From the UHGV virus genome UHGV-0017034: 20,747 nucleotides of DNA; one strand, 5' to 3'. The position numbers and the translations under genes were made by a program. The notes beneath the pieces are model-generated. The model searched no databases and was not told the DNA's origin. It saw only the letters and a list, made by a program, of their open reading frames with translations. Source of the DNA: a virus. Below are positions 1,608-20,583 of the stretch, piece by piece (the stretch's first letter is position 1; each line of letters starts with the position of its first letter).

Positions 1608-4600
1608 TTACCCTAATTTAGCTTCAATTGCAGCAAGACGTTCACGAAGAAGTTTATTTTCTTCGCTCATTTCTTGGACCGCTTTAATTAAAAGCGCGTT
1701 CACTGCGGAGTTTGAAATTGTTAAAATTTCTTCTGGGTTATCAAAACCACCAATTTTTGCGGTTTTAACAGCTTCCGGTAATACCTCTTGTAAATCCTGT
1801 GCGATAATACCAATCTCATGACCTATAACTTCTCGGTCATTAAGAGATTTAACTTTATCGTAGGTTTTAACTTTGAGTTTATTTACCTTATCCACCGCAT
1901 TTTCTTCGTAATCTTCAACATTAATTTTCAGACGACGATCGGAACGAATATAAACATCGTTAAAGTTTCCGTTACCAGTGGCATGAAATTCTCCACTTGC
2001 ATGGAATTGATAATCAGCACCCTGAACATGAAGAACCGCTGCCGCAGTATTATTACTATCACCGGGACAATGAACGTCCATAGCAGCGATGTAGTTACGC
2101 CCCCAATCAACCGCTTTCCAAATAGCATGAGCACTATCAACGCTTTGTTGACAGTCAACCAACAAACCAGCAGGTCGGTCTCTCCATGCAACATATGCAC
2201 CACCAGAAACCTCACCACGGATAAGTCCTTGATCTGCGGCATAAGGAACACGCCCTTCCAGTTTAATCATCGCGCCCTGGAAGTGATGTGTAAATTGTCC
2301 ACCGTGGTTATTGCGAATATGTAAAATACCCTCATCTGTAGCCCAGATAACAGCCTTTTCCGTATCGCTATCATCTCTAAACCAGACGTGGCGAGCACCA
2401 GCAGAGTTTTTGATAGTAATCCCGGAAGGTCCATGCACAGTAAAAGCGCCAGCAACATCAAACATCAAACTGTTATCTGTCCTACGTTCAGTATAGAAGT
2501 GATAACCTTTGGAATCACCGACTTCCATCACTGCCGCGCGACCAACTTCTGAATTTCCCCAATTATTAATAGAGAATCGTTCAGAGCTATTATTCATCTG
2601 ATTTAGGTATAATGTACCATCAGTGAATGTTTCGCCAAAGAATCTGGTTTTAACGCCGTTAGTACCCCCCACGCGTTCAAATTCAGCCAAGAAACCTTTG
2701 GAATCTCGCATACTCAAAACGTTATTGCGTCCTGTATTACTGTTACCCCAATGGATTAATTCAATATAGTCCATTGACTGACGAGACCCTGATCTAAACA
2801 CCATATTATCTTCGATGCGGGTGCTACCATCAATTCCCAGATGTAAACAGCGTGCGGTAGCTGTGCCACCTAGATCTAATCCACCTTCGGCGAAATCATA
2901 ACTAAATGGTCTACGAGTGTTCCACGTCCCAAAGGAATCTTTTAAATCGGTAGTAAGAATATGGAAGCTAGAACCATCATTACGAAGGATTAAACCATAG
3001 TTACCACCTTTGACAGCCAAACGAGCATTTTCAGATAATGCCACTTCGCTATTCATTACAATTTTCTGGCCTCTACCGCCAGTAATATGTAATTCACCGT
3101 CTTCAATCAGGTTTATAGAGTTTTGACCGTTGTCGTTCCACCAAATAAAATCTTTGGTCTGACCATCACCGAAGCCAAACCAGCCATTACGAACATCTTG
3201 TCCAGTGCGATAATCCATGAAATTAAAATGACTTGATTCGTTTGGTCCTCGACGAATATCAATACCAGAATTTCCAGTAACACCGCCATCCAATGTTAAT
3301 TTCTTGACATGTAACCCGGATGTTGCTGACAGCAATAATTCCTGATTTGTATCTTCGTATCCAGTAGCAAGACGATATGCGTTATCATCAACTGTCTCAT
3401 GCCAGATTGTAGCTGGTGCACAACTACGGAAGCGACGCAACATCTTTTTAGCATTTGTCGGTTGTTCGTTCAAATGCTCAATGTCATATTGGCCTTGATG
3501 ATTGCCAGCAAAATTTAATGTTCCACGGTTGCTAAAGTTATTGAACGATGAAATGTTAAGAGCATCAAAAATTTCGTCTGCAACAGGTTTTTCACCACCC
3601 AGATATTCAGGAGTATCCAACAGGTTTAAAGAAACACCACCGGAAGAAACTTGATATTCTGCTAAAACAAATCCTGTATGTGCACCGTAGTAAGCGTAAA
3701 GATCGTAATTGTCGCCATCGGTTGGAATAGCGCAAAAATGTTGTTCATAATGCCAAATAGTATAATACGCATTGAATACAACACCTTTCGGGCTATTGTT
3801 GCCGCATCGAATCACCAATTCGATAATATTGGCTTGTCCATTATGTCCTACGTTATAACCGTTACCACCAACCAAACGGATCTTAGCCGTGCGACCGTGT
3901 TGTTGTGGCATTGTCAAAGTGCCTAGTTTAAACCAACCACCCTCGATACCAAAATTAAGCGTCTTCTGGAACAGTCGGTCAATTTCTGCTTTCGAATATG
4001 CGCCAATTTCAGCCGGAGTAGGTTTATCACCTTCATGATACATGCGGTGAGAATATGCCAAATGTCCCAATTCATCATAGCCGTATGTTCTTACCGTATG
4101 AACCGGATTAGACCCATAAGTGAACTCAAAACCACGAGCATGATTAACGCCGGATGGGTGCGGAACATGCAAGATCATTGCAATATGACCCGCCAGGTCA
4201 TTCATGCGGAATGCACCAAAGTAGTCAAGATTACGCGCACTCGGATCATCAAAATAGTTTGCGGTCTTAGACAGCAAATAACCATCAGTGTAAGTGTTTA
4301 CGTGCTTTTTGATGTACTTGCCATCACTCGATCCATCGGCTGCATCAATACGGCTTTCTAAACGTGCCAGTTCGGAATCAGTGTAAGACTTGTTATTGTC
4401 AACTTTGCTATGAATTGCTGTATTTTTGGCTTCAACATCACGGGTTAATGCTGCGACGTTATCCGCTGCCTCTTGCTTATTGGCTGCAATCACACCAGTA
4501 AGGTTATTGTAGGTGTCAGTTAACTGATTTTCCGCATAGGCGTGATTTGCTGCGATAGTGCGGTCAGTTTCTGCCTTAATCAAATCAACTTTGTCATTGA

Positions 4601-11077: not shown

Positions 11078-12982
11078 TTAGAACGATGTTATCCAGCTAC
11101 GGCCTCTATTTGGACGTCTGACGATGTTTTGACGTTGTGGTCGTGTGATTGGCTTAGTTTCTTCTATTTGCTCGTTAGATTGCGATTTAGGAGCTTTTAC
11201 GGGTTCTTCGACAACACGGTTTAAGCTGTCTTTCATTGCAATGAGTTTATCCCATGACATTTTTGAAAGAACGTAGCGAGAAGCCGCTGTAGCATACACT
11301 GCGCAGTCGAGCGCCTCGTTCCTAACGCCTGGGTTCTTTACCCATCTCACGCCAGTAGTAGTACGCTTGACAGATTCACTTAAAAGCTGATCGAGATAAT
11401 CATCAGGAACGGTTCCTGATATTTCTAAGCTAATGTGAGGATTGTCTTTCAGGTTTCTAACCAACATTTCACGAAATGCAGTTTTACCCACGTTAACACC
11501 CAACATAAGCAATTCATGACCACCTGTGCGGGTAGGTTTAACCGGAATGATCGGAGCGTTACCAGCAGAACTACCTTTGATAGCGTGTAAGTTCTTCCAC
11601 TTGCCGCAAATACGGTATCCAGCTTGAGTGAATCGACCGTTCGATGTATCAAGGAAGCTGGCGAGCATAGGAACACGATCACCCGATACAGTAGTAAATT
11701 TGGTTTTATGGAAGTTGATTAATCTATCCCATACAGGGGATTCATATCGTTCACAGTTATGATCGTAAAAGCTGCGATGATCCAGAATATAAATCTTATC
11801 CTTTGCCACGCCCATGATTGTAGTTTCTGCGCGATCTAATTGCTGGTCAGTACCCGCACACAAGAAAATCACGTCATCAGGGATATTCTCGATAGAAACA
11901 TCTGTTTTTAGTTGTTCCAGTTCATTTGCTTCTACTGCCGTGTCCTGATCGTCGTATACCTTGCCTAACACGGTGTTATAAAATGATTGTAAATCAAAGG
12001 ATTGCCACGCATGACTAAAATCAACCACACAAGCGCGGATCGTGCTGAAAGGTGAATACAGACGGCTGATCCAGAATCCTGCTACCTCACTTTCACGGGT
12101 TGCTCTCCACTCTCCTTGTGCCACCGCCCTGATCCGCTCTCCTTCTGTCCATGCGTTCTTACAGTGGGGGCAAATATAACGAGCGGTATCAGGATCGGGT
12201 AAGTTCTTACCATCAATGTTACGCCATTCAAACTGTACGTTTTCCCACTCGATCACCTGGTGTCTACCGCAATGAGGACACGGAACAAAAAACATACGCA
12301 TATCGCTTGATAACCATTGCTGGTTAATGCTTCCGAGCTTACTGGTCGGGGTACTGGATACGACTAATCGGCCTTCATCGCCAAAGGTAGTTAAACGGTT
12401 AGCAGCCAGTGCCACCGGATCACCTTCTTCTGAGGCTGTAGCAGCATCGATTTCGTCAAGCAGTCCGACCTTTGCTGTCTTACCGCGTAGGGTTGATGGA
12501 CTAGTAAGCGATACCATATAAAGGAAGTGGTTTGATTTGAGCTGGAGCTGATTGTTGTTATTAACAGAATTGCGATCATTCTTGTCTGTAACCACGTCTT
12601 TTAATGCATCACATGCTTCGATAGACGGTCGGATCTTACCCGCGAGATATTGAGACATTTCTTTAGCGGTTGATTGTCCGATAATCATATTGCATGGATC
12701 GTTAGCCATCTGGTTAAATAGGATGCCGTTCAAGATGGTAGTCTTTCCGATCTGCGCACTGGTCATCAGAACATACTTTTTCTTGTTCTCAAGGAAAGGA
12801 GCATCAATCATACCTTTCTGGAATGACAGCAATTTAACTTTATCCCCAGCTTGAGGACCATCTACCAGCACCATATTCGCTTCGCACCATTCAGAAGGAA
12901 GGAGCTTAGGCGGTGGCGTAATATATTTGGCTGCATTTTTGAGAATCTTTTTTAATTTGGCCTTATTTGAAATCAGTTTCAT
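11078..12982 (-). CDS. terL: Terminase large subunit, lambda GpA family (634 aa)
   Basis: Walker A-like [10 protein letters not shown]; motifs matching lambda gpA as recalled ([11 protein letters not shown] vs LTAGIDSQLDR; [11 protein letters not shown] vs RRNEALDCFVYA; CPHCG...YICPHC zinc-finger-like pairs); GAGGGT RBS. Confidence 0.9.
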
Positions 12983-13067: not shown

Positions 13068-13670
13068 ATGCTAATTAATCAGCAACAAAGAGATGAATTA
13101 GAATTAGCCTTGTCTTGTACCGATCATGAATATCGTTTACCAGTTAAGCATAAGCATTTAAAAACCGACTACACTACATCTGGCTTTAGTCGTGAGGAAG
13201 CGAAAGAGATTTTAATAGAATTTTACCGCGATAATGGTTATACAGACGTTCACAACTTCTTTAAGAAGCATAGAACATCACATACAGAGTTTCGGAGAGT
13301 CCGAGATTGGTTTGATTTTGATATCAAGCGTTATTATCGAGTGGATGACGGTCCTATCTATCGGTTGCAGTGGAAGCCGATCCGAGAAGTGTTGAAACAG
13401 AAGAGATTGAATCACGCAATTACACGCTATCGTAACGAGGCTTTCAAGAAAGGCTATGGTGATACAAGGGAACTATTCGTTGAACTCGCTAACGTGCGTT
13501 ATAGCCACTATTACAACGATCCTAAAGGGTTCTTTGAAGTGCTTCGCAAGGTTGATATAAGTCGGGGTACATACTATTCACGGTTGAAGAAGTACGGGAT
13601 TAAGGCAGAGTTCTTTATGAGTATTGACGATGGAGAACTTTTTCCGATAAAATGTAAGTCCTCTAAATAA
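13068..13670 (+). CDS. Basic DNA-binding-like protein (200 aa) with a C-terminal HTH motif
   Basis: AAGGGGG RBS 4 nt upstream; C-terminal [16 protein letters not shown] resembles the HTH of the two small paralogs at 13705 and 17159; divergent from terL. Confidence 0.55.
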
Positions 13671-13704
13671 AGGTGAACATTCACTTTAATTTGGAGAAAT
13701 GACT

Positions 13705-13932
13705 ATGACTACTAAAGCTACTCGCGGTCGTCCTGCCCGTTTTAACGCTGAACAGATGGCTGATATTGCCTACGCTTACTATACAGCGGATCGTGGTAAG
13801 GAAGCGAAAGAACAGATTCTTAGTGAACATGGGATCTCAATCGCCCAATTCTATAAGAATATGAAGAAGTTAGACATTAAATTCTATGTTCAGATCGGTG
13901 ATGGTCAGATCGTAGAAGCAACAGGTTTTTGA
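13705..13932 (+). CDS. Small HTH protein (75 aa), paralog of the 17159-17338 product
   Basis: N-terminal ATRGRPARF; HGISIAQFYKNMKKLDIK HTH-like motif; GGAG RBS is correctly spaced for the ATG at 13705 rather than 13699. Confidence 0.55.
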   Translation: MTTKATRGRPARFNAEQMADIAYAYYTADRGKEAKEQILSEHGISIAQFYKNMKKLDIKFYVQIGDGQIVEATGF

Positions 13933-14077: not shown

Positions 14078-14893
14078 TTACAGTCCGAAGTGTTCCAGTG
14101 ATCCAACATTCTGGCGGAGACGTTCAGCCGCTTTATTTTGAATCAGAATAGTGTTATTTGGCTGCGGCAGTTTAAGAGTTGCTTTCTGTTCTTCTTCCAG
14201 AACACCCAATTCCACCAACACCGGAAGCACATCAACAGTAAAAGAAAGCTGATAGTGAGTGTTCATGCTGCAAAACGGTAAAGCGGAATCATTAGCAACA
14301 TACCCACACGGCTTGTTATTTTCATCATAGACGCGTTCAATGTAGCCAGCAGTACGTAAGGCCGTCAGTGCTTCTTTAACCTTCGTAGCGCCCTTTTTAG
14401 CGCCTAACAGACGGGTCATTGAATGGCTATCAACGGATTTGCGATAATGAAGTTCAATCAGTTGTTTGTTTTCGCGAGTTTTCTTTAACGCCAGTTCGAT
14501 CCAGTCGGTTTCTTCAAAGTCTGCATACGGGTTAACGGCTAAACGTTCCTGCCGCAGTTTTTCATTTTCTTCTTTCAGTCGTTTCCATTCCTGAATAACA
14601 ACCATTCGACGCTTAACATCGTAACCAGTGACAAGAGTCAGCGTCATTTCTTCGTCTAAGTGATATTCGGTTTGTTCACGTCCACACTGATCAAGATAGG
14701 TGCGCTCAAAACTGAGCACATCTAATTCCAGAGCATCGAGCATGGATTTAATATCACGTTTAACGTTTTTGTGTTCTTTTCCGGTAAATTCAGCGATCTG
14801 ACGAGAAGACATGGTCAGTGGTTTGGTGTTATCAACAACCAGAGACACGGAAGCAGTTTTAACAGCAGTATTCATAGCAGTAACAGTATTCAT
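14078..14893 (-). CDS. Rha-family phage regulatory protein (antirepressor-like), 271 aa
   Basis: N-terminal LTMSSRQIAEFTGKEHKNVKRDIKSMLDALELD...FERTYLDQCGREQTEYHLDEEMTLTLVTGYD matches the Rha domain pattern as recalled; AAGGGG RBS. Confidence 0.6.
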   Translation of the reverse strand: MNTVTAMNTAVKTASVSLVVDNTKPLTMSSRQIAEFTGKEHKNVKRDIKSMLDALELDVLSFERTYLDQCGREQTEYHLDEEMTLTLVTGYDVKRRMVVIQEWKRLKEENEKLRQERLAVNPYADFEETDWIELALKKTRENKQLIELHYRKSVDSHSMTRLLGAKKGATKVKEALTALRTAGYIERVYDENNKPCGYVANDSALPFCSMNTHYQLSFTVDVLPVLVELGVLEEEQKATLKLPQPNNTILIQNKAAERLRQNVGSLEHFGL

Positions 14894-14981: not shown

Positions 14982-15314
14982 TTACCAATCGATTTCTACT
15001 TGGTCTTCTTCATAATAAGGAATCGCATATTCATAACGCCAATTTTCGATGATTTCACGTTCTTCATTAGTAAGAAGGTGATTGTTAACTGGAGTCGCAT
15101 TGTGATTACCAGCTTCGAATTGCTCGCGAACTTCCAGCATTGCATGAATACCAGTTAAGGTCATCAGATCAAACGGAACATGCATACTACGGGAGATAGT
15201 TTCACGGGATACGCCCCAATCATTTTCTACATGGCTAGGGGTTACAGAAACGGTTTTGCCGGAGATTTTAACAGTCCAGTCATACAGGGATTTAGTGATG
15301 GTAAATTCTTTCAT
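14982..15314 (-). CDS. Hypothetical protein (110 aa)
   Basis: ORF with AGAGGA RBS 7 nt upstream; no recognisable family. Confidence 0.6.
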   Translation of the reverse strand: MKEFTITKSLYDWTVKISGKTVSVTPSHVENDWGVSRETISRSMHVPFDLMTLTGIHAMLEVREQFEAGNHNATPVNNHLLTNEEREIIENWRYEYAIPYYEEDQVEIDW

Positions 15315-15370
15315 GTTACATCCTCTTTACAAATCTAGGTCAAATATAATAAAAGTTGTCAAGTGCGATA

Positions 15371-15399
15371 ATCATAAAAAAGTCATAAATTTTTGTCAA
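15371..15399 (-). promoter_or_regulatory. Sigma70-type promoter (minus strand) TTGACA-17-TATGAT
   Basis: -35 at 15394-15399 and -10 at 15371-15376 read on the minus strand; lies ~50 nt upstream of the 14982-15314 gene. Confidence 0.55.
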
Positions 15400-15412
15400 T
15401 ATACCTTGACAA
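15393..15412. promoter_or_regulatory. Operator-like inverted repeat TTGTCAA-N6-TTGACAA overlapping the -35
   Basis: Perfect 7-bp inverted repeat; the 9-mer GTCAAGTGC nearby (15358-15366) recurs at 16778-16786. Confidence 0.4.
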
Positions 15413-15434
15413 GACGCCAAAGGGTTGACCTAAC

Positions 15435-15893
15435 TTACAGCATATCTAAGCCTTCATCGTAACCGTAGAAGCCACCGTGAGAAGAGAAAGCGATTGGTGC
15501 GTAGTCTTCGTCTTCCTCATCTTCTTCATCTTGTTCTGGGGCTTCCTGAGCGGTTTCTTTGCCGTAATCAGCCATAATCTGGTCAAGATCGGCGATCCCA
15601 TAGTAAGAGCCTAAATCAACGTCATATTCACGGACTTGAAACGGCAGATCATCACGAACAATAATTGCTGGAATATCGTTGTATTGAAGACGACCTTCAT
15701 CAGTAAAACAGTCGATGATCACAGTAGGACGACCATTTCGTTTTAAAGCGTAGAAAGCAGTTGAGTAGTTGGAGTCTTCGGAATGACGAATGATGTTATA
15801 ACCACGATTAGCGAAAACTTCTAGCATATGGAAGTTGCCATAGTTTTCAGAGTCCAGACCCAGAAGTACGAAAGGAGTTTTAGTATTGATCAT
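15435..15893 (-). CDS. Hypothetical protein (152 aa) with a strongly acidic C-terminal tail
   Basis: ORF with GAGGA RBS; C-terminus EAPEQDEEDEEDEDYAPIAFSSHGGFYGYDEGLDML; no recognisable family. Confidence 0.6.
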   Translation of the reverse strand: MINTKTPFVLLGLDSENYGNFHMLEVFANRGYNIIRHSEDSNYSTAFYALKRNGRPTVIIDCFTDEGRLQYNDIPAIIVRDDLPFQVREYDVDLGSYYGIADLDQIMADYGKETAQEAPEQDEEDEEDEDYAPIAFSSHGGFYGYDEGLDML

Positions 15894-16085
15894 AGTGGAA
15901 ATCCTCTAAAAGAAAGTGAATCAAGTAAGTTCACTATTATTTATAACGAGAATTTTTTATCTATTTGGAAGTGATTGGATTCAGTCGGGCTAAAGCCCTC
16001 CTTCATATATTTGATTAAATCATCATCAAAACGAAGAAGTATCTTTAGAATATAAGAATCTTTCTTTTGGAGAAATTATAATCAG

Positions 16086-16350
16086 GAAGCAATTTAGCAA
16101 CCGAAGGTTGCAATCCCGAAGGGATACCAATACCTTTCTAGAAAGTGATTGTTACTCACTTCGTTCGTTTACTAGAATCAGTTAGTAACTAGTATTAAAT
16201 CCCTTTCTAAGAAAATCCTTTCAAAAGCGAGTGAACGCCGTAGGCGTGAACGTGAGCGAAGCGAACTATCCAATCCCTTTCGAATCCTGCTTGCAGGTCT
16301 TAGAAGGTGTTGATGGGCGCTTCGCGCACGGCTACGCCGTATTCTTTTTG
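16086..16350 (+). ncRNA. Candidate structured noncoding RNA (hairpin-dense, ORF-free, ends at a terminator)
   Basis: Hairpins GCAACC-GAA-GGTTGC (16097-16111), ATCCC-GAA-GGGAT (16113-16125), palindrome CTTTCTAGAAAG (16134-16145), AGTGA/TCACT, ACGCC-GTA-GGCGT, CCTGC-TT-GCAGG; stops in all frames; weak TATAAT at ~16074; 5' end uncertain. Confidence 0.3.
16317..16350 (+). terminator. Rho-independent terminator (plus strand) with tandem hairpins
   Basis: GCGC-UUC-GCGC then ACGGC-UAC-GCCGU followed by AUUCUUUUUG; no protein-coding gene upstream on this strand. Confidence 0.6.
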
Positions 16351-16471
16351 CGAGATCTTTCTTGAACGTAGTGAGAGAAAACGAGCAAAAAGGAGAACGT
16401 TAGTTCGAATTTTATATTCTATGGTCTGTGGGGTGAAATGTCTTTCAAGATCATACACTTATGAGATTGAA

Positions 16472-16593
16472 GTGTAGGGTTAGTGTAGGTGTGTAGGTTT
16501 CATAGTGTAGGTTTGAGGGTGTTATAGTGTAGGTTTACTGACTAGTGTAGTGTAGGCCAATCCCTTTAAAGCGTAGGTTTGTAGTGTAGGTTT
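16472..16593. repeat. Iteron array: about 9 copies of GTGTAGG(TTT)
   Basis: Copies start at 16472, 16483, 16491, 16505, 16527, 16550, 16584, with a variant GCGTAGGTTT at 16571 and a half-site at 16545; spacing often 11 or 22-23 bp; flanked by an AT-rich tract (16594-16700). Confidence 0.7.
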
Positions 16594-16698
16594 TTCATCA
16601 AAAATTTTGATAGAAAATTCTTGTATATTATTTAACCGGAAAATCACCAAAAATCGCTGTAAATGCATGATTTAAAAAGAATTATCAAAAGGTCGCCG

Positions 16699-16707
16699 TG
16701 CTATAAT
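16699..16707 (+). promoter_or_regulatory. Extended -10 promoter element TGCTATAAT
   Basis: TG-n-TATAAT perfect match; -35 weak. Confidence 0.35.
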
Positions 16708-16787
16708 AGGTTATAAAGGTTGATAATCGTTATCCGCCATTTTCACACAAAAATTTTGATAGTCATTTCTCGCTTAGGTCAAGTGCA

Positions 16788-16816
16788 TTGACAACTGTCA
16801 AGGATTATTTTATACT
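16788..16816 (+). promoter_or_regulatory. Sigma70 consensus promoter TTGACA-17-TATACT with overlapping palindrome TTGACA-AC-TGTCAA
   Basis: -35 at 16788-16793, -10 at 16811-16816, exact 17-bp spacer; GTCAAGTGC 9-mer at 16778-16786 shared with the 15358 region. Confidence 0.6.
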
Positions 16817-17158
16817 TTTTCTCATTGGTAGGGGTTGAAATTTTCGAAACAATCCCCATATTGATGATAAACAAGATTTTTTCGTGTATAAATACATGCA
16901 TGAAATGATTGTTCACTTCTGAAAATCCCCTGATTCACTGTTAACACACACAGCACTGGTTAAACACACAGTGCCTTTTCGATTGAATAATGTACGAATT
17001 GATTAATTATTAATCTTCTCTTTAGCAATTCGTGCTCCCGCTGATCAGATATACAGTGGTTTTGCAGGGTTTTCTGAAATGACTTTTATAAATAGAAGTA
17101 TCGAGGGCGAAAAGCTCTTTTTATTGTCCTTATTAATCCACATTTGAGGAATCTACTT

Positions 17159-17338
17159 ATGGCTAGACCTGTTAAGTTTACTCGTGAAATGATTGTTGAT
17201 ATTGCTAAACGCTTTTATGGCGATACTGAACGAGGCGGCGAGAATTTCTTTAAGAAGGAAGGAATTGATAGAAGCGGATTCTATAAGCTAATGAAGAAAT
17301 ACGAAATTCAGATAAAGATTAACGTTCAAGTTTGTTAA
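17159..17338 (+). CDS. Small HTH protein (59 aa), paralog of the 13705-13932 product
   Basis: GAGGAA RBS 9 nt upstream of ATG 17159 (the track ORF begins at a TTG at 17144); MARPVKFTREMIVDIAKRFY...GIDRSGFYKLMKKYEIQ parallels the other paralog. Confidence 0.55.
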   Translation: MARPVKFTREMIVDIAKRFYGDTERGGENFFKKEGIDRSGFYKLMKKYEIQIKINVQVC

Positions 17339-17454: not shown

Positions 17455-18456
17455 ATGAAAAATTCTAAGCGCATCACCTTCAACCTGTTTATTAAATCCA
17501 ACGGCAAACTGAACATTACCGTCATGGAAGGTAAAGCAAGCAAACAAGACAAATCCTTTGAAGTAGTATCCGGTAAGACTCTGACCGAAATGCGTCAGAA
17601 TGCTGGCATCAAAGACGGTGCTGAATGGCAGATCACTAACCGTTTCGACAAACGTCACGTTAAACCTACACTGGTAGAAGGTGAATCCGTTTATTGCTTC
17701 GCTCGTGCTGTTAAAGCCGATGAAACTTACTATCTCGCTGTTGTTAAAACTGCTTCCGGCTTCCGTGCTGTAATGCATCACAAGAGCAAGCGTAACGAAT
17801 ACGGCGTAGAGACCCAGGAAGTCGCAAAACGCTTCCGTACTGTTGCTACCGAATCCACTGTAAAGGATGTTTCTGGTACTGTTAACACCGTTAAAGGCGG
17901 TTCCTTCTACAACCACGCATTACAGGTTACTTCCTCCTTCTTCTGCAAAAAAGAAGCACAGAAAGAAGTTGCTCCGGTAGTAGTTGAAGAAGTTAAAGAA
18001 GAAGTTGCAGTGGTTGAATCTTCCGAAGTTGAAGCACTGAAAGCACGCATTGCTGAACTGGAAGCTGAAAACGCATCTCTGAAAGCTGAACTGGCAGCAC
18101 AGGAAACCACTTTCGAAGTAGCAGCGGTTGAAGTTGAAGCAGTTGAAGAAAAATCCATTGATGAAGAACTGGAAGAACTCCTTAACTATCGCTGGGGTAA
18201 CGGTGAAAAAGTAGAACAGGAAGAACAGAAAGAAGCTGATCCGGTAGTAGTTCCGGTTGAAGAAAAATCCGCACCTGTTACTAACTTTGAATCCCTGCGC
18301 AATAACTTTATGGCTAAATTCAAAACCACTTGGGAAGATACCGAAGAAGAACAAGAAGAGATTGAAGTAAACGAAGACGAGATCCGCGAAGCACAGATGG
18401 CACTGCATGACGCTATCTACGACACCAACTACAGCGCCTACGCATACGCAGCTTAA
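17455..18456 (+). CDS. Hypothetical abundant protein (333 aa): N-terminal globular domain plus acidic Glu/Val/Ala-rich coiled coil
   Basis: AGGAG RBS; codon usage visibly different from neighbours (CGT, CTG, GGT, TCC, ACC, GAA, AAA, TTC, TAC preferred), typical of highly expressed E. coli-type genes; leucine-zipper-like EALKARIAELEAENASLKAELAA. Confidence 0.8.
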   Translation: MKNSKRITFNLFIKSNGKLNITVMEGKASKQDKSFEVVSGKTLTEMRQNAGIKDGAEWQITNRFDKRHVKPTLVEGESVYCFARAVKADETYYLAVVKTASGFRAVMHHKSKRNEYGVETQEVAKRFRTVATESTVKDVSGTVNTVKGGSFYNHALQVTSSFFCKKEAQKEVAPVVVEEVKEEVAVVESSEVEALKARIAELEAENASLKAELAAQETTFEVAAVEVEAVEEKSIDEELEELLNYRWGNGEKVEQEEQKEADPVVVPVEEKSAPVTNFESLRNNFMAKFKTTWEDTEEEQEEIEVNEDEIREAQMALHDAIYDTNYSAYAYAA

Positions 18457-19426: not shown

Positions 19427-19978
19427 TTAAGACACATCAAATTCATCGTCTTCTTCTGGTTCTTGTTCCGGTTCATCCATTAATGGTAATTCTTCTTCCT
19501 CGTCTTCTCCCAAATCTGCATTTTCGAACAAGTCCCCTACTTCATTTAAACGACGCTCGATAATCTCTCTTAGCTTATTCTTCAATGTTTTCTGGTCATT
19601 GGCAGATTCGAGAATTTCTAGGGCATCGATTGTGGCGATCTGCAAAATAGTCTGCTTCACTTTCCCGCAATATTCCGCTAGCTCCTGCTCCACATACCCG
19701 ACGGGAATCAGGAGATTCATCGCTTCCTGGTTCTCTCGTTCGGCTGCATCTGCTAATGCTCTCTCACGGCGTAATTTCTCTACGTCGATTTGTTCCTTGA
19801 CAGTAGTTTCTTTAAGCGGGTTGATGATATTTTTCAAGACCCATTCTGTTCCTTCTTTGGCTGGCACGCGGCGGGTATTGGTATTAAATGGCATTCCTCG
19901 TTCTTGCCATTTCTTAGCGGCGTTAATTGTATAGCCGTATAAACGGGAAATTTCTGTAAGGGTTAATTCTTCTTTCAT
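19427..19978 (-). CDS. terS: Terminase small subunit, lambda Nu1-like (183 aa from the RBS-supported start)
   Basis: LTLTEISRLYGYTINAAKKWQERGMPF parallels the lambda Nu1 N-terminal HTH (IFGASIRTIQNWQEQGMPV as recalled); acidic C-terminal tail; GGAGGA sits 8 nt upstream of Met-6 (19978), while the first ATG at 19993 has no SD. Confidence 0.65.
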   Translation of the reverse strand: MKEELTLTEISRLYGYTINAAKKWQERGMPFNTNTRRVPAKEGTEWVLKNIINPLKETTVKEQIDVEKLRRERALADAAERENQEAMNLLIPVGYVEQELAEYCGKVKQTILQIATIDALEILESANDQKTLKNKLREIIERRLNEVGDLFENADLGEDEEEELPLMDEPEQEPEEDDEFDVS

Positions 19979-20089
19979 CCGGTTATCCTCCATTAAATTT
20001 GCGTAAAATTATTTATCTGATCTGCGCATTCAGGAGAGCGCCTAAAACGCTTTATAACGAAGGGAAAGATCGAGGCATGGAAAGGGATT

Positions 20090-20140
20090 GGCGGGTGTTA
20101 ATAGTCGCGTAGCGACCGCGCTGGTGGGCTGCACTGCACC
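20090..20140. other. Candidate cos / packaging-initiation site
   Basis: GC-rich island in AT-rich DNA about 120 bp upstream of the Nu1-like gene, containing the perfect palindrome GTCGC-GTA-GCGAC (20104-20116); GGAAAGGGA-like repeats lie between it and the gene. Confidence 0.25.
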
Positions 20141-20217
20141 TGTTTTGAAATCTCACACGTACATCAAAAACCGGGGTGCCGAAAACTCCCTTTATTTCAT
20201 CCGTGGAACAGTACCTT

Positions 20218-20277: not shown

Positions 20278-20583
20278 ATGAAGACTAAAGATATTAAGAT
20301 TGAATTTGAAACTGTTGATGACGTTCGGGAACATCGCATTGATTCTACTGGCTGCATCTTCCAGCTTACTAACTCCCCTATTGGATTGATTATCTATGTA
20401 GCAGAAGATGACGTGTACGCTATATGGGATGGACAGGATGAGTTTAAAGGCGGGAATAGCCATCTGATCAATACTCATGAGGGATTTGATCCGACTCCTG
20501 TCTGTATGCTTGCTTATCACGTAACACTGGATGAACTACCGGAAGCAAGCGCGCGTATCCGTAGAATGAAAGACATTAAGTGA
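20278..20583 (+). CDS. Hypothetical protein (101 aa)
   Basis: GAGGG RBS 5 nt upstream of ATG; followed 20 nt later by a strong terminator; divergent from terS. Confidence 0.6.
   Translation: MKTKDIKIEFETVDDVREHRIDSTGCIFQLTNSPIGLIIYVAEDDVYAIWDGQDEFKGGNSHLINTHEGFDPTPVCMLAYHVTLDELPEASARIRRMKDIK

Follow-up and report, generated by a model that had tools for sequence, protein, structure and literature searches.

Two strong promoters of an uncharacterised Escherichia coli prophage share a bipartite, operator-like direct repeat

The locus and its gene module

The subject of this study is a stretch of 20,747 nucleotides (nt) of virus genome UHGV-0017034, here called the window, and in it two sigma-70-type promoters, P_A and P_B, that share the bipartite direct repeat CTTGACA-N13-TTGACCTA. 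The window has a GC content of 42% and belongs to a temperate E. coli prophage of about 37 kb. DNA of this prophage is present in 58 of 5426 complete E. coli genomes, and every copy is chromosomal. In strain UTME-9 (locus L028), it forms an insertion of about 37 kb that splits ycdX and has a large serine recombinase at the opposite end, and further copies adjoin yncJ/hicAB or ghrA. The chromosomal location of the copies, the split ycdX gene and the recombinase thus identify the window as the right arm of an uncharacterised temperate prophage.

Both promoters lie in a 6.4-kb module between the gene for a lambda-type large terminase (11078-12982) and the gene for a Nu1-like small terminase (19427-19993, PHROG 57). 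The module starts with two plus-strand genes, encoding proteins of 200 amino acids (aa; 13068..13670) and 77 aa (13699-13932). They are followed by three minus-strand genes, for a Rha-family, anti-repressor-like regulator (14078..14893), for orf110 (14982..15314), and for a 152-aa orphan protein with an acidic C-terminal tail (15435..15893). After 1.25 kb without genes, the plus-strand genes of a 59-aa protein (17159..17338), a 333-aa orphan protein (17455..18456) and an 80-aa protein complete the module. The Rha-family protein matched PF09669 (E 1e-13) and the PHROG "anti-repressor Ant" (E 3e-19). It was the only module protein that matched a protein family: for the 152-, 110-, 333-, 200-, 77-, 59- and 80-aa proteins, nothing was found in Pfam, PHROGs, NCBIfam, PADLOC or the PDB sequences, and the AlphaFold2 model of the 152-aa protein was unusable (pLDDT 37).

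Two near-consensus promoters

P_A is oriented on the minus strand (15371..15399) and is composed of TTGACA (15399->15394), a 17-nt spacer and TATGAT (15376->15371). P_B is oriented on the plus strand (16788..16816) and is composed of TTGACA (16788-16793), likewise a 17-nt spacer, and TATACT (16811-16816). In a promoter scan of the window, each agreed with the consensus at 11 of 12 positions; the only other match of this quality is antisense within the tail-fibre gene and has an 18-nt spacer. Both therefore have the hexamers and the 16–18 nt spacing of sigma-70 promoters, and both are intergenic and upstream of a gene. From the positions of the -10 hexamers, we infer transcription starts near 15364 for P_A and near 16823-16824 for P_B. 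P_A is predicted to drive orf110, the start codon of which is 57 nt away, and, as the second gene, the Rha gene. The promoters are 1.39 kb apart, and the 152-aa gene, a hairpin-rich stretch and an iteron array are situated between them. An earlier inspection of the letters alone, the sequence-only reading, had placed two divergent transcription units on the flanks of a control region; the arrangement is not a compact control region of this kind.

Just upstream of P_B, an extended -10 promoter, TGcTATAAT, is found at 16699-16707. It is flanked by two copies of CAAAAATTTTGATAG (16599-16621 and 16748-16770), which are 87% identical and could be a further operator pair; the first copy contains the palindrome ATCAAA-AAT-TTTGAT.

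A bipartite direct repeat at both promoters

A repeat search revealed a similarity of 28 nt between the two promoter regions (regions A and B), which consists of box 1 (CTTGACA), a gap of 13 nt and box 2 (TTGACCTA). Three exact copies are present in the window. Element A1 (15405..15432, plus strand) directly follows the stop codon of the 152-aa gene and covers about -41 to -68 of P_A. Element A2 (15336..15363, minus strand) covers about +2 to +29 of the same promoter; it is inverted relative to A1, with 41 nt between the two. Element B (16775..16802, minus strand) extends from about -49 to -22 of P_B and thus lies over the -35 hexamer and the spacer. The pattern has 15 defined positions and a constant 13-nt gap, and the three N13 spacers are mutually unrelated. 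The window contains no further copy with up to three mismatches (0.62 expected), the looser pattern TTGAC-N14-TTGAC with one mismatch added none, and other gap lengths gave none. In the whole 37-kb prophage of UTME-9, no site was found outside the three positions. Direct boxes at a fixed distance, occurrence at several promoters, and conserved boxes around a free spacer are the properties of a bipartite operator; the weak point is the drift of box 2 at site B and in Salmonella. The true shared element of the two regions is CTTGACA-N13-TTGACCTA, rather than the palindromes as such or the 9-mer that had been noticed in the sequence-only reading.

When the sequence was re-read, the coordinates and sequences given there for the promoters, the palindromes and the 9-mer all proved to be right. 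Palindrome A, TTGTCAA-N6-TTGACAA, occupies 15393..15412; its left arm is the -35 hexamer of P_A, and the other arm is the inner box of A1. Palindrome B, TTGACA-AC-TGTCAA (that is, TTGAC-N4-GTCAA), occupies 16788..16801, is centred near -29, and comprises the -35 hexamer of P_B and box 1 of element B. Both palindromes are explained by the bipartite element because each consists of a real -35 hexamer with an inverted box 1 beside it, 6 nt upstream of the hexamer at P_A and 2 nt downstream at P_B. A perfect inverted repeat of 6+6 or 7+7 nt thus sits on each -35, which is the dyad symmetry expected of a promoter-overlapping operator of a dimeric repressor (lambda or P22 type).

The genome-wide motif count proposed in the sequence-only reading was run on the window and did not yield uniform results: the palindromes were above chance, the 9-mer was not. 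The hexamers TTGACA/TGTCAA themselves are not enriched (15 in the window, 14.6 expected), and 5 of the 15 are found at the two promoter regions. Their arrangement differs from random expectation. Four of the 15 hexamers are arms of perfect inverted repeats (6+6, at most 8 nt between the arms), compared with 8 of 1450 in 100 dinucleotide shuffles, so that perfect inverted repeats built from TTGACA are about 50 times rarer in the shuffles than in the window. The two regions also contain the densest clusters of TTGAC/GTCAA in the window, five in 92 bp and three in 24 bp; elsewhere there are at most two per 110 nt.

The 9-mer GTCAAGTGC, taken by the sequence-only reading as a site common to both regions, was rejected as an operator. 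With up to one mismatch it has 4 matches in the window, and 3.55 were expected. The window contains 1553 distinct 9-mers that recur, and in 15% of composition-matched shuffles some 9-mer was common to both regions. Its copies are explained by the bipartite element, because copy 1 (15358..15366, plus strand) is box 1 of A2 plus TGC, and copy 2 (16778..16786, plus strand) is box 2 of element B plus GTGC, the latter being part of N13. The two copies are out of register with respect to the element and coincide by accident. Among 24 related loci, only 11 have an exact second copy, in which 5 of the 9 positions are variable.

Two further candidates were discarded. The partner hexamers of the palindromes do not act as -35 elements of opposite-strand promoters, as they lack a usable -10. 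In a comparison by eye with consensus sequences, no fit was found to the sites of LexA, CRP, IHF, PhoB, sigma-32, sigma-E or P2 Ogr (TGT-N12-ACA); the Ogr pattern is trivially contained in palindrome A, where its position is wrong and the N7 variants described below break it.

Conservation and exchange of the sites in relatives

Relatives of the module were collected as 41 loci from viral contigs, which were searched with the 152-aa protein and with the terminase, and as further loci from E. coli, Salmonella and Proteus genomes, which were retrieved by exact-protein look-ups. Region A was compared in 47 loci and region B in 24 loci of the E. coli type.

The hexamers of P_A are kept in all 47 loci. 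Box 1 of A2 is identical in 47/47 and box 2 in 43/47, with TTGACCTG in the remaining four; the N13 between them varies widely (ACTTTTATTATAT, ACTTTGAACCTAT and ACATTAACCCGAT, among others). A1 is kept in 45 of the 47 E. coli-type loci. The arms of palindrome A are kept in 43/47 and enclose a variable spacer (TATACC, TACCCC, CACCCC), which is N7 in three E. coli loci and in both Salmonella relatives. P_B is kept in the type-1 relatives. Box 1 of element B is retained in 23 of the 24 loci, and box 2 is exact in 15 and otherwise reads ATGA[CT]CTA, TTGATCTA or TTGACCCA. The palindrome B arms TTGAC and GTCAA are constant in 26 loci, 24 from E. coli and 2 from Salmonella, around six different centres (AACT, AAGT, TTCT and ATGT in E. 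coli; GGCT and TCCT in Salmonella). They are unchanged even where the sixth base of the -35 hexamer differs (TTGACT, TTGACG). The elements are thus real, non-random and conserved.

In the Salmonella relatives, the 200-aa protein is only 47–56% identical and the surrounding DNA differs, but the hexamers persist. Their P_A region reads TGTCAA-N7-TTGACA, the latter being the -35, then the -10, and then TTGACA; the three hexamers are located at about -47..-42 (inverted), at -35, and at about +3..+8. Their P_B regions contain TTGAC-GGCT-GTCAA and TTGAC-TCCT-GTCAA. The comparison indicates that deep conservation is confined to the box-1 hexamers and the palindromes, and that the bipartite element in its full form belongs to the E. 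coli lineage.

The sites were not found in all relatives, and they are not inherited as a pair. At the P_B position, the type-2 cassettes (L004 and others) contain a tandem of two promoters that match the consensus perfectly and have no inverted box, and locus L018 has a third P_B cassette without a B site; in both cases, region A is unchanged. Conversely, L039 has kept region B and has no region A. The Proteus relative has neither site. P_B cassettes have evidently been exchanged independently of their neighbours. Region A is itself a mosaic junction: from 15318 on the downstream gene is swapped, in several relatives for an unrelated open reading frame (ORF) of 48 aa that replaces orf110, and the upstream gene is 62% identical, while the cassette is unchanged. 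Autoregulation by the first gene of the operon is disfavoured because the swap of orf110 leaves region A unaltered. In UTME-9, A1 is degenerate at both boxes (CCTGACA...CTGATCTA, prophage positions 31370-31400), and A2 and B are intact; this may reflect decay of that prophage copy.

Iterons, leader and neighbouring noncoding DNA

Between the promoters, nine repeats of (A)GTGTAGG(TTT) in the same orientation form an iteron array (16472..16594, plus strand). It adjoins an AT-rich stretch with 28% GC (16595..16700), which leads up to the extended -10 promoter. In the relatives, the type of iteron co-varies with the downstream protein of 309–333 aa. Four iteron types pair strictly with four types of the N-terminal domain of this protein in E. 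coli, Salmonella and Proteus: GTGTAGG in the window, CAGGGGCAA in L004, L059 and Salmonella L057, CGGGGA in L011, and CTAGGGAT in Proteus L056 and Salmonella L058. The pairing holds in spite of the independent exchange of the intervening promoter cassette and the 59-aa gene. From the sequence comparison, this co-variation is the firmest new result. The 333-aa protein is thus a putative iteron binder and maybe a replication initiator. Its very small family comprised only 6 clusters among 1.84 billion representatives, and no similarity to an initiator family, a solved sequence or a solved fold was detected; its N-terminal domain gave a moderately good model, and the best Foldseek match in the PDB had E = 0.21. 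DnaA boxes are not clearly enriched. Of the hallmarks of an origin, the direct-repeat array and the AT-rich region are present, a specific binder encoded nearby is indicated by the co-variation only, and resemblance to an initiator was not found. Nevertheless, the iterons and the 333-aa protein are probably an origin with its initiator.

Transcription from P_B would yield an untranslated leader of about 300 nt (16823..17127, plus strand; 335 nt when counted up to the 59-aa gene). An intrinsic terminator (17103-17127) closes it, immediately in front of the ribosome-binding site of this gene. The leader has a folding z score of -4.56 and contains four base pairs with changes on both sides. A terminator is found at this position in all three leader types, although the stems differ, and the types share the motifs CTTTAGCAATTCGTGCT, TTAACAC repeats and GGGGTTGAAA...CAATCCCC. 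These features suggest that the operon is also controlled after transcription has started, and the leader may act by attenuation or as a small RNA.

The remaining noncoding DNA has several peculiarities. An intergenic element of 84 nt (16002-16085) is 75–86% identical to an element of which phage JSE has four intergenic copies and which also occurs in other RB49-like (Krischvirus) phages; its stem-loop shows compensatory arms between copies (TTGAT...ATCAA versus TTGGTTA...TAACCAA). The region 16040-16400 is rich in hairpins with short G/C stems and, on the minus strand, CUUCGG loops (e.g., 16097-16111 and 16113-16123). Within it, 16243-16263 is complementary to the distant stretch 16318-16338. 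Conservation of the region between module types is partial, and Rfam has no matching family. All five copies of TATAAATA, which we take to be the T4 late-promoter consensus, are in intergenic DNA of the module (15938, 16887, 17087, 17446, 20239), and none is found in 13 kb of structural genes; this distribution may only reflect the AT-rich spacers.

The prophage family

Late genes occupy the minus strand of the window and encode, in addition to the large terminase, a portal protein, a protease-capsid fusion, tail tube proteins and a T4-like long tail fibre. Upstream of the small terminase gene, a GC-rich stretch (20080-20150, GGGATTGGCGGGTG...GCGACCGCGCTGGTGGGC) may be the cos site. Three parts of the window have 67–74% DNA identity to phage JSE, a 101-aa ORF near the prophage end (20278-20583) and two parts of the tail-fibre gene (1659-1975, 4015-4269), and they indicate gene exchange between the temperate prophage and virulent T4-type phages.

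The prophage has little similarity to described phages. The promoter regions had no megablast match in 50,697 phage records, and the terminase protein is at most 45% identical to anything in this collection. No relative of the prophage was found in scans of species-representative genomes, and the noncoding region of the module had no match in the plasmid collection. Rfam gave no hits at gathering thresholds and only chance-level matches by E-value, and no tRNA genes were found. A literature search retrieved neither palindrome sequence and no description of the prophage. About 1% of complete E. coli genomes carry a member of the family, which extends to Shigella, Salmonella and Proteus; genes for a repressor, Cro, replication or antitermination could not be recognised in it.

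Discussion

The explanation we favour, though tentatively and at somewhat less than even chances, is that the boxes are operators of one phage-encoded DNA-binding protein that represses both promoters. By occupying the boxes, this protein would keep RNA polymerase off P_A and P_B. Binding would silence the operon of orf110 and the antirepressor-like Rha gene, and it would damp the operon of the leader and the 59-aa, 333-aa and 80-aa genes, beside the origin-like iteron array. Sites over the -35 and the spacer and just after the start point are classic for blocking RNA polymerase. With a near-consensus promoter in front of it, an operon of the Rha/Ant type would presumably have to be silenced in a lysogen, and the fixed arms of palindrome B within the promoter spacer are a constraint that is not normal for a spacer.

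Several observations weigh against this explanation. Nine of the 24 E. coli loci deviate in box 2 of site B, and the only box 2 left in Salmonella is that at A1 of L058, where N13 has changed; it is lost at A1 of L057 and at A2 and B in both relatives. The spacer of palindrome A can be N6 or N7. The relatives with other cassettes have consensus P_B promoters without the element and are apparently viable prophages, which implies that repression at P_B would be dispensable. No module protein matched a DNA-binding family, and no repressor was identified. The geometry of the half-sites is also unfavourable: they are arranged as TGTCAA-N6/7-TTGACA at A and as TTGACA-N2-TGTCAA at B, that is, in opposite orientation and with centres 12–13 bp versus 8 bp apart. 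The same orientation and spacing, as expected for one dimeric repressor of the lambda or P22 type, were therefore not found, and one rigid dimer would be unable to read both palindromes alike.

These results bear on the proposal of the sequence-only reading that one regulator controls both units. It is supported in that a shared operator-like element beyond chance expectation exists and makes one regulator plausible; the opposite geometry of the palindromes and the lack of co-inheritance argue against a strict form of it. The operator-like boxes that the two promoters share are most likely for one repressor, and the regulon is a loose one. For the suggested immunity or early-late switch, no support was obtained in the analysis, and a repressor gene was not identified.

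An alternative with a low but real probability is that there is no dedicated regulator at all. The extra TTGACA/TTGACC hexamers would then be additional or competing contacts for region 4 of sigma-70, and the cassettes would serve as homology patches for gene swapping, with the PeSLs of T4-type phages as a precedent for such shuffling (PMC2839356). The identity of box 1 with the -35 consensus, the location of the unchanged region A exactly at a mosaic junction, the independent exchange of P_B cassettes, and the 84-nt element common to RB49-like phages are all compatible with this alternative. However, conservation exceeds the -35 hexamer, including the C before TTGACA and the CTA after TTGACC, the 13-nt gap is fixed, and the partner hexamers have no -10. 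The GTCAA arm in the P_B spacer is constant across genera, although hitch-hiking should allow drift, and regions A and B have no counterpart in the phage records.

For palindrome B alone, a host factor is, judging from its sequence, the main alternative. Palindrome B might be the box of a host regulator of the CRP/FNR family, such as E. coli FNR, which would shut P_B off without oxygen from about -29; palindrome A and the other boxes would then be unrelated. TTGAC-N4-GTCAA is built exactly like the FNR-type boxes (5-4-5), its arms are constant and its centre varies freely in the 26 loci, and it equals the consensus form of HcpR and Anr boxes: TTGACnnnnGTCAA is the consensus of the FNR-like HcpR and TTGac-N4-gtCAA that of the Anr box, and the FNR box itself is TTGATnnnnATCAA, TTGAT-N4-ATCAA (PMC1274295, PMC4974557). 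A host factor would also fit the lack of co-variation of the operators with any phage gene of the module. On the other hand, the scan of the prophage genes turned up none of the CRP/FNR type, the E. coli FNR consensus is matched at only 8 of 10 positions, with both inner positions off, and the site lies over a consensus promoter and away from the activating position (-41.5). The pattern TTGAY-N4-RTCAA is matched by palindrome B only; palindrome A has the inverse arrangement (GTCAA-N6/7-TTGAC). Three exact bipartite copies and the clusters at P_A would be left unexplained, and the site is absent from the Proteus relative and from the cassettes of types 2 and 3. We therefore regard an FNR-type box as rather improbable.

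It is very improbable that the palindromes act as nucleic-acid hairpins, A as a terminator or attenuator of the 152-aa transcript and B of transcripts from the TGcTATAAT promoter. Palindrome A does begin 23 nt past the stop codon of the 152-aa gene, its arms are conserved around a variable loop, and Salmonella L057 has CCCCC-TTGACA-GGGGG in its place. However, the stems are weak (z scores of -1.9, -0.07 and -0.01), the minimum-free-energy fold of region A skips the palindrome, neither stem is followed by a U-tract, the terminator scan made no call there, and no compensatory arm changes were found in the 47 loci. Least credible of all is a chance origin of palindromes and repeats in two AT-rich promoter regions, which would suit the 9-mer taken alone, but not the shuffle statistics for palindromes, clusters and the bipartite element or the conservation across genera.

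The operators do not co-vary with orf110 or the 59-aa, 333-aa or 152-aa protein. A low-confidence candidate for a phage protein that binds the bipartite element is the 200-aa protein. The 59-aa protein, which contains a helix-turn-helix-like motif, is paralogous to the 77-aa protein and to each half of the 200-aa protein. The underlying domain of about 60 aa occurs once in each of the small proteins and as two tandem copies in the 200-aa protein; in hhalign comparisons with the 59/77-aa profile, the N-terminal half of the latter scored a probability of 65% (E 6e-5) and the C-terminal half of 92% (E 5e-7). A pair of dissimilar DNA-binding domains would be suited to a pair of dissimilar boxes in direct orientation, and the protein is 84–100% identical across the E. 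coli-type relatives. Two results count against this assignment. The domain matches no described family, and its only outside similarity, to segments of Fis/NtrC-type and SorC-type helix-turn-helix domains, is below threshold (E 0.45–0.5). In L059, the 200-aa protein is only 52% identical and the boxes are unchanged, so that no co-variation favours the candidate.

A more far-reaching version of the operator explanation is speculative, and we consider it unlikely. It assumes that the boxes are read by an orphan class of small helix-turn-helix-like proteins confined to this prophage group (the 59-aa, 77-aa and 200-aa proteins) and that the tandem 200-aa protein would bind the bipartite repeat as a monomer. 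As box 1 copies the -35 hexamer of sigma-70 promoters, repressor and sigma region 4 would be rivals for one set of six bases. Such a system, along with the iterons, the 333-aa protein and the structured leader with its terminator, would constitute an undescribed minimal module for the control of lysogeny and replication.

Irrespective of the identity of the binder, the intervals 15336-15363, 15405-15432 and 16775-16802 provide three DNA probes for finding the regulator, and the four-way match of iterons and proteins yields a clear candidate for an origin-initiator pair made of orphan proteins.

Comparison with known systems

Repeated protein boxes that overlap promoters are the standard means by which temperate phages silence lytic or accessory operons, and the proposed mechanism is thus unsurprising. 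The immI region of phage P22 contains Pant-arc-ant with the operators of Arc and Mnt. Common to both systems are a strong promoter, a small first gene and a gene of the anti-repressor type (here orf110 and Rha/Ant), as well as operator-like repeats over the promoter core and the start. In contrast to P22, no ribbon-helix-helix domain of the Arc/Mnt type was found in orf110, in the 48-aa ORF that replaces it or in genes nearby, the operator region stays unchanged when the first gene is swapped, and the boxes are TTGACA-type direct and inverted repeats, unlike the operators of Arc and Mnt.

The operators of the C repressor of phage P2 consist of two direct half-sites about two helical turns apart, which span the early promoter. 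Likewise, the element described here has two similar direct boxes, 19 bp apart from start to start, over or next to the promoter core. The box sequences are unrelated to those of P2, no C-like repressor was found, and at P_A two elements are, in addition, inverted around one promoter.

The PeSLs of T4-type phages are strong sigma-70 promoters with stem-loops that mediate shuffling (PMC2839356, PMC4122927). P_A and P_B resemble them as near-consensus sigma-70 promoters in short conserved cassettes that border swapped orphan genes, and the neighbouring 84-nt element is shared with RB49-like phages. The differences are that a temperate, siphovirus-like prophage is involved here, that the window has no GGGG...CCCC terminator stem ahead of P_A or P_B, and that no phage record matches region A or region B in sequence.

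Iteron origins, such as lambda ori with O, P1 oriR with RepA, and those of iteron plasmids, differ from the array found here in that the 333-aa protein has no detectable similarity to their initiators and DnaA boxes do not stand out. They resemble it in the row of same-orientation repeats next to an AT-rich stretch and strong promoters, and in a repeat type that tracks one nearby protein. The kind of arrangement at P_A and P_B is thus that of an ordinary phage promoter with its operator; the novelty lies in the uncharacterised prophage family with its orphan proteins and its matched pairs of iterons and proteins.

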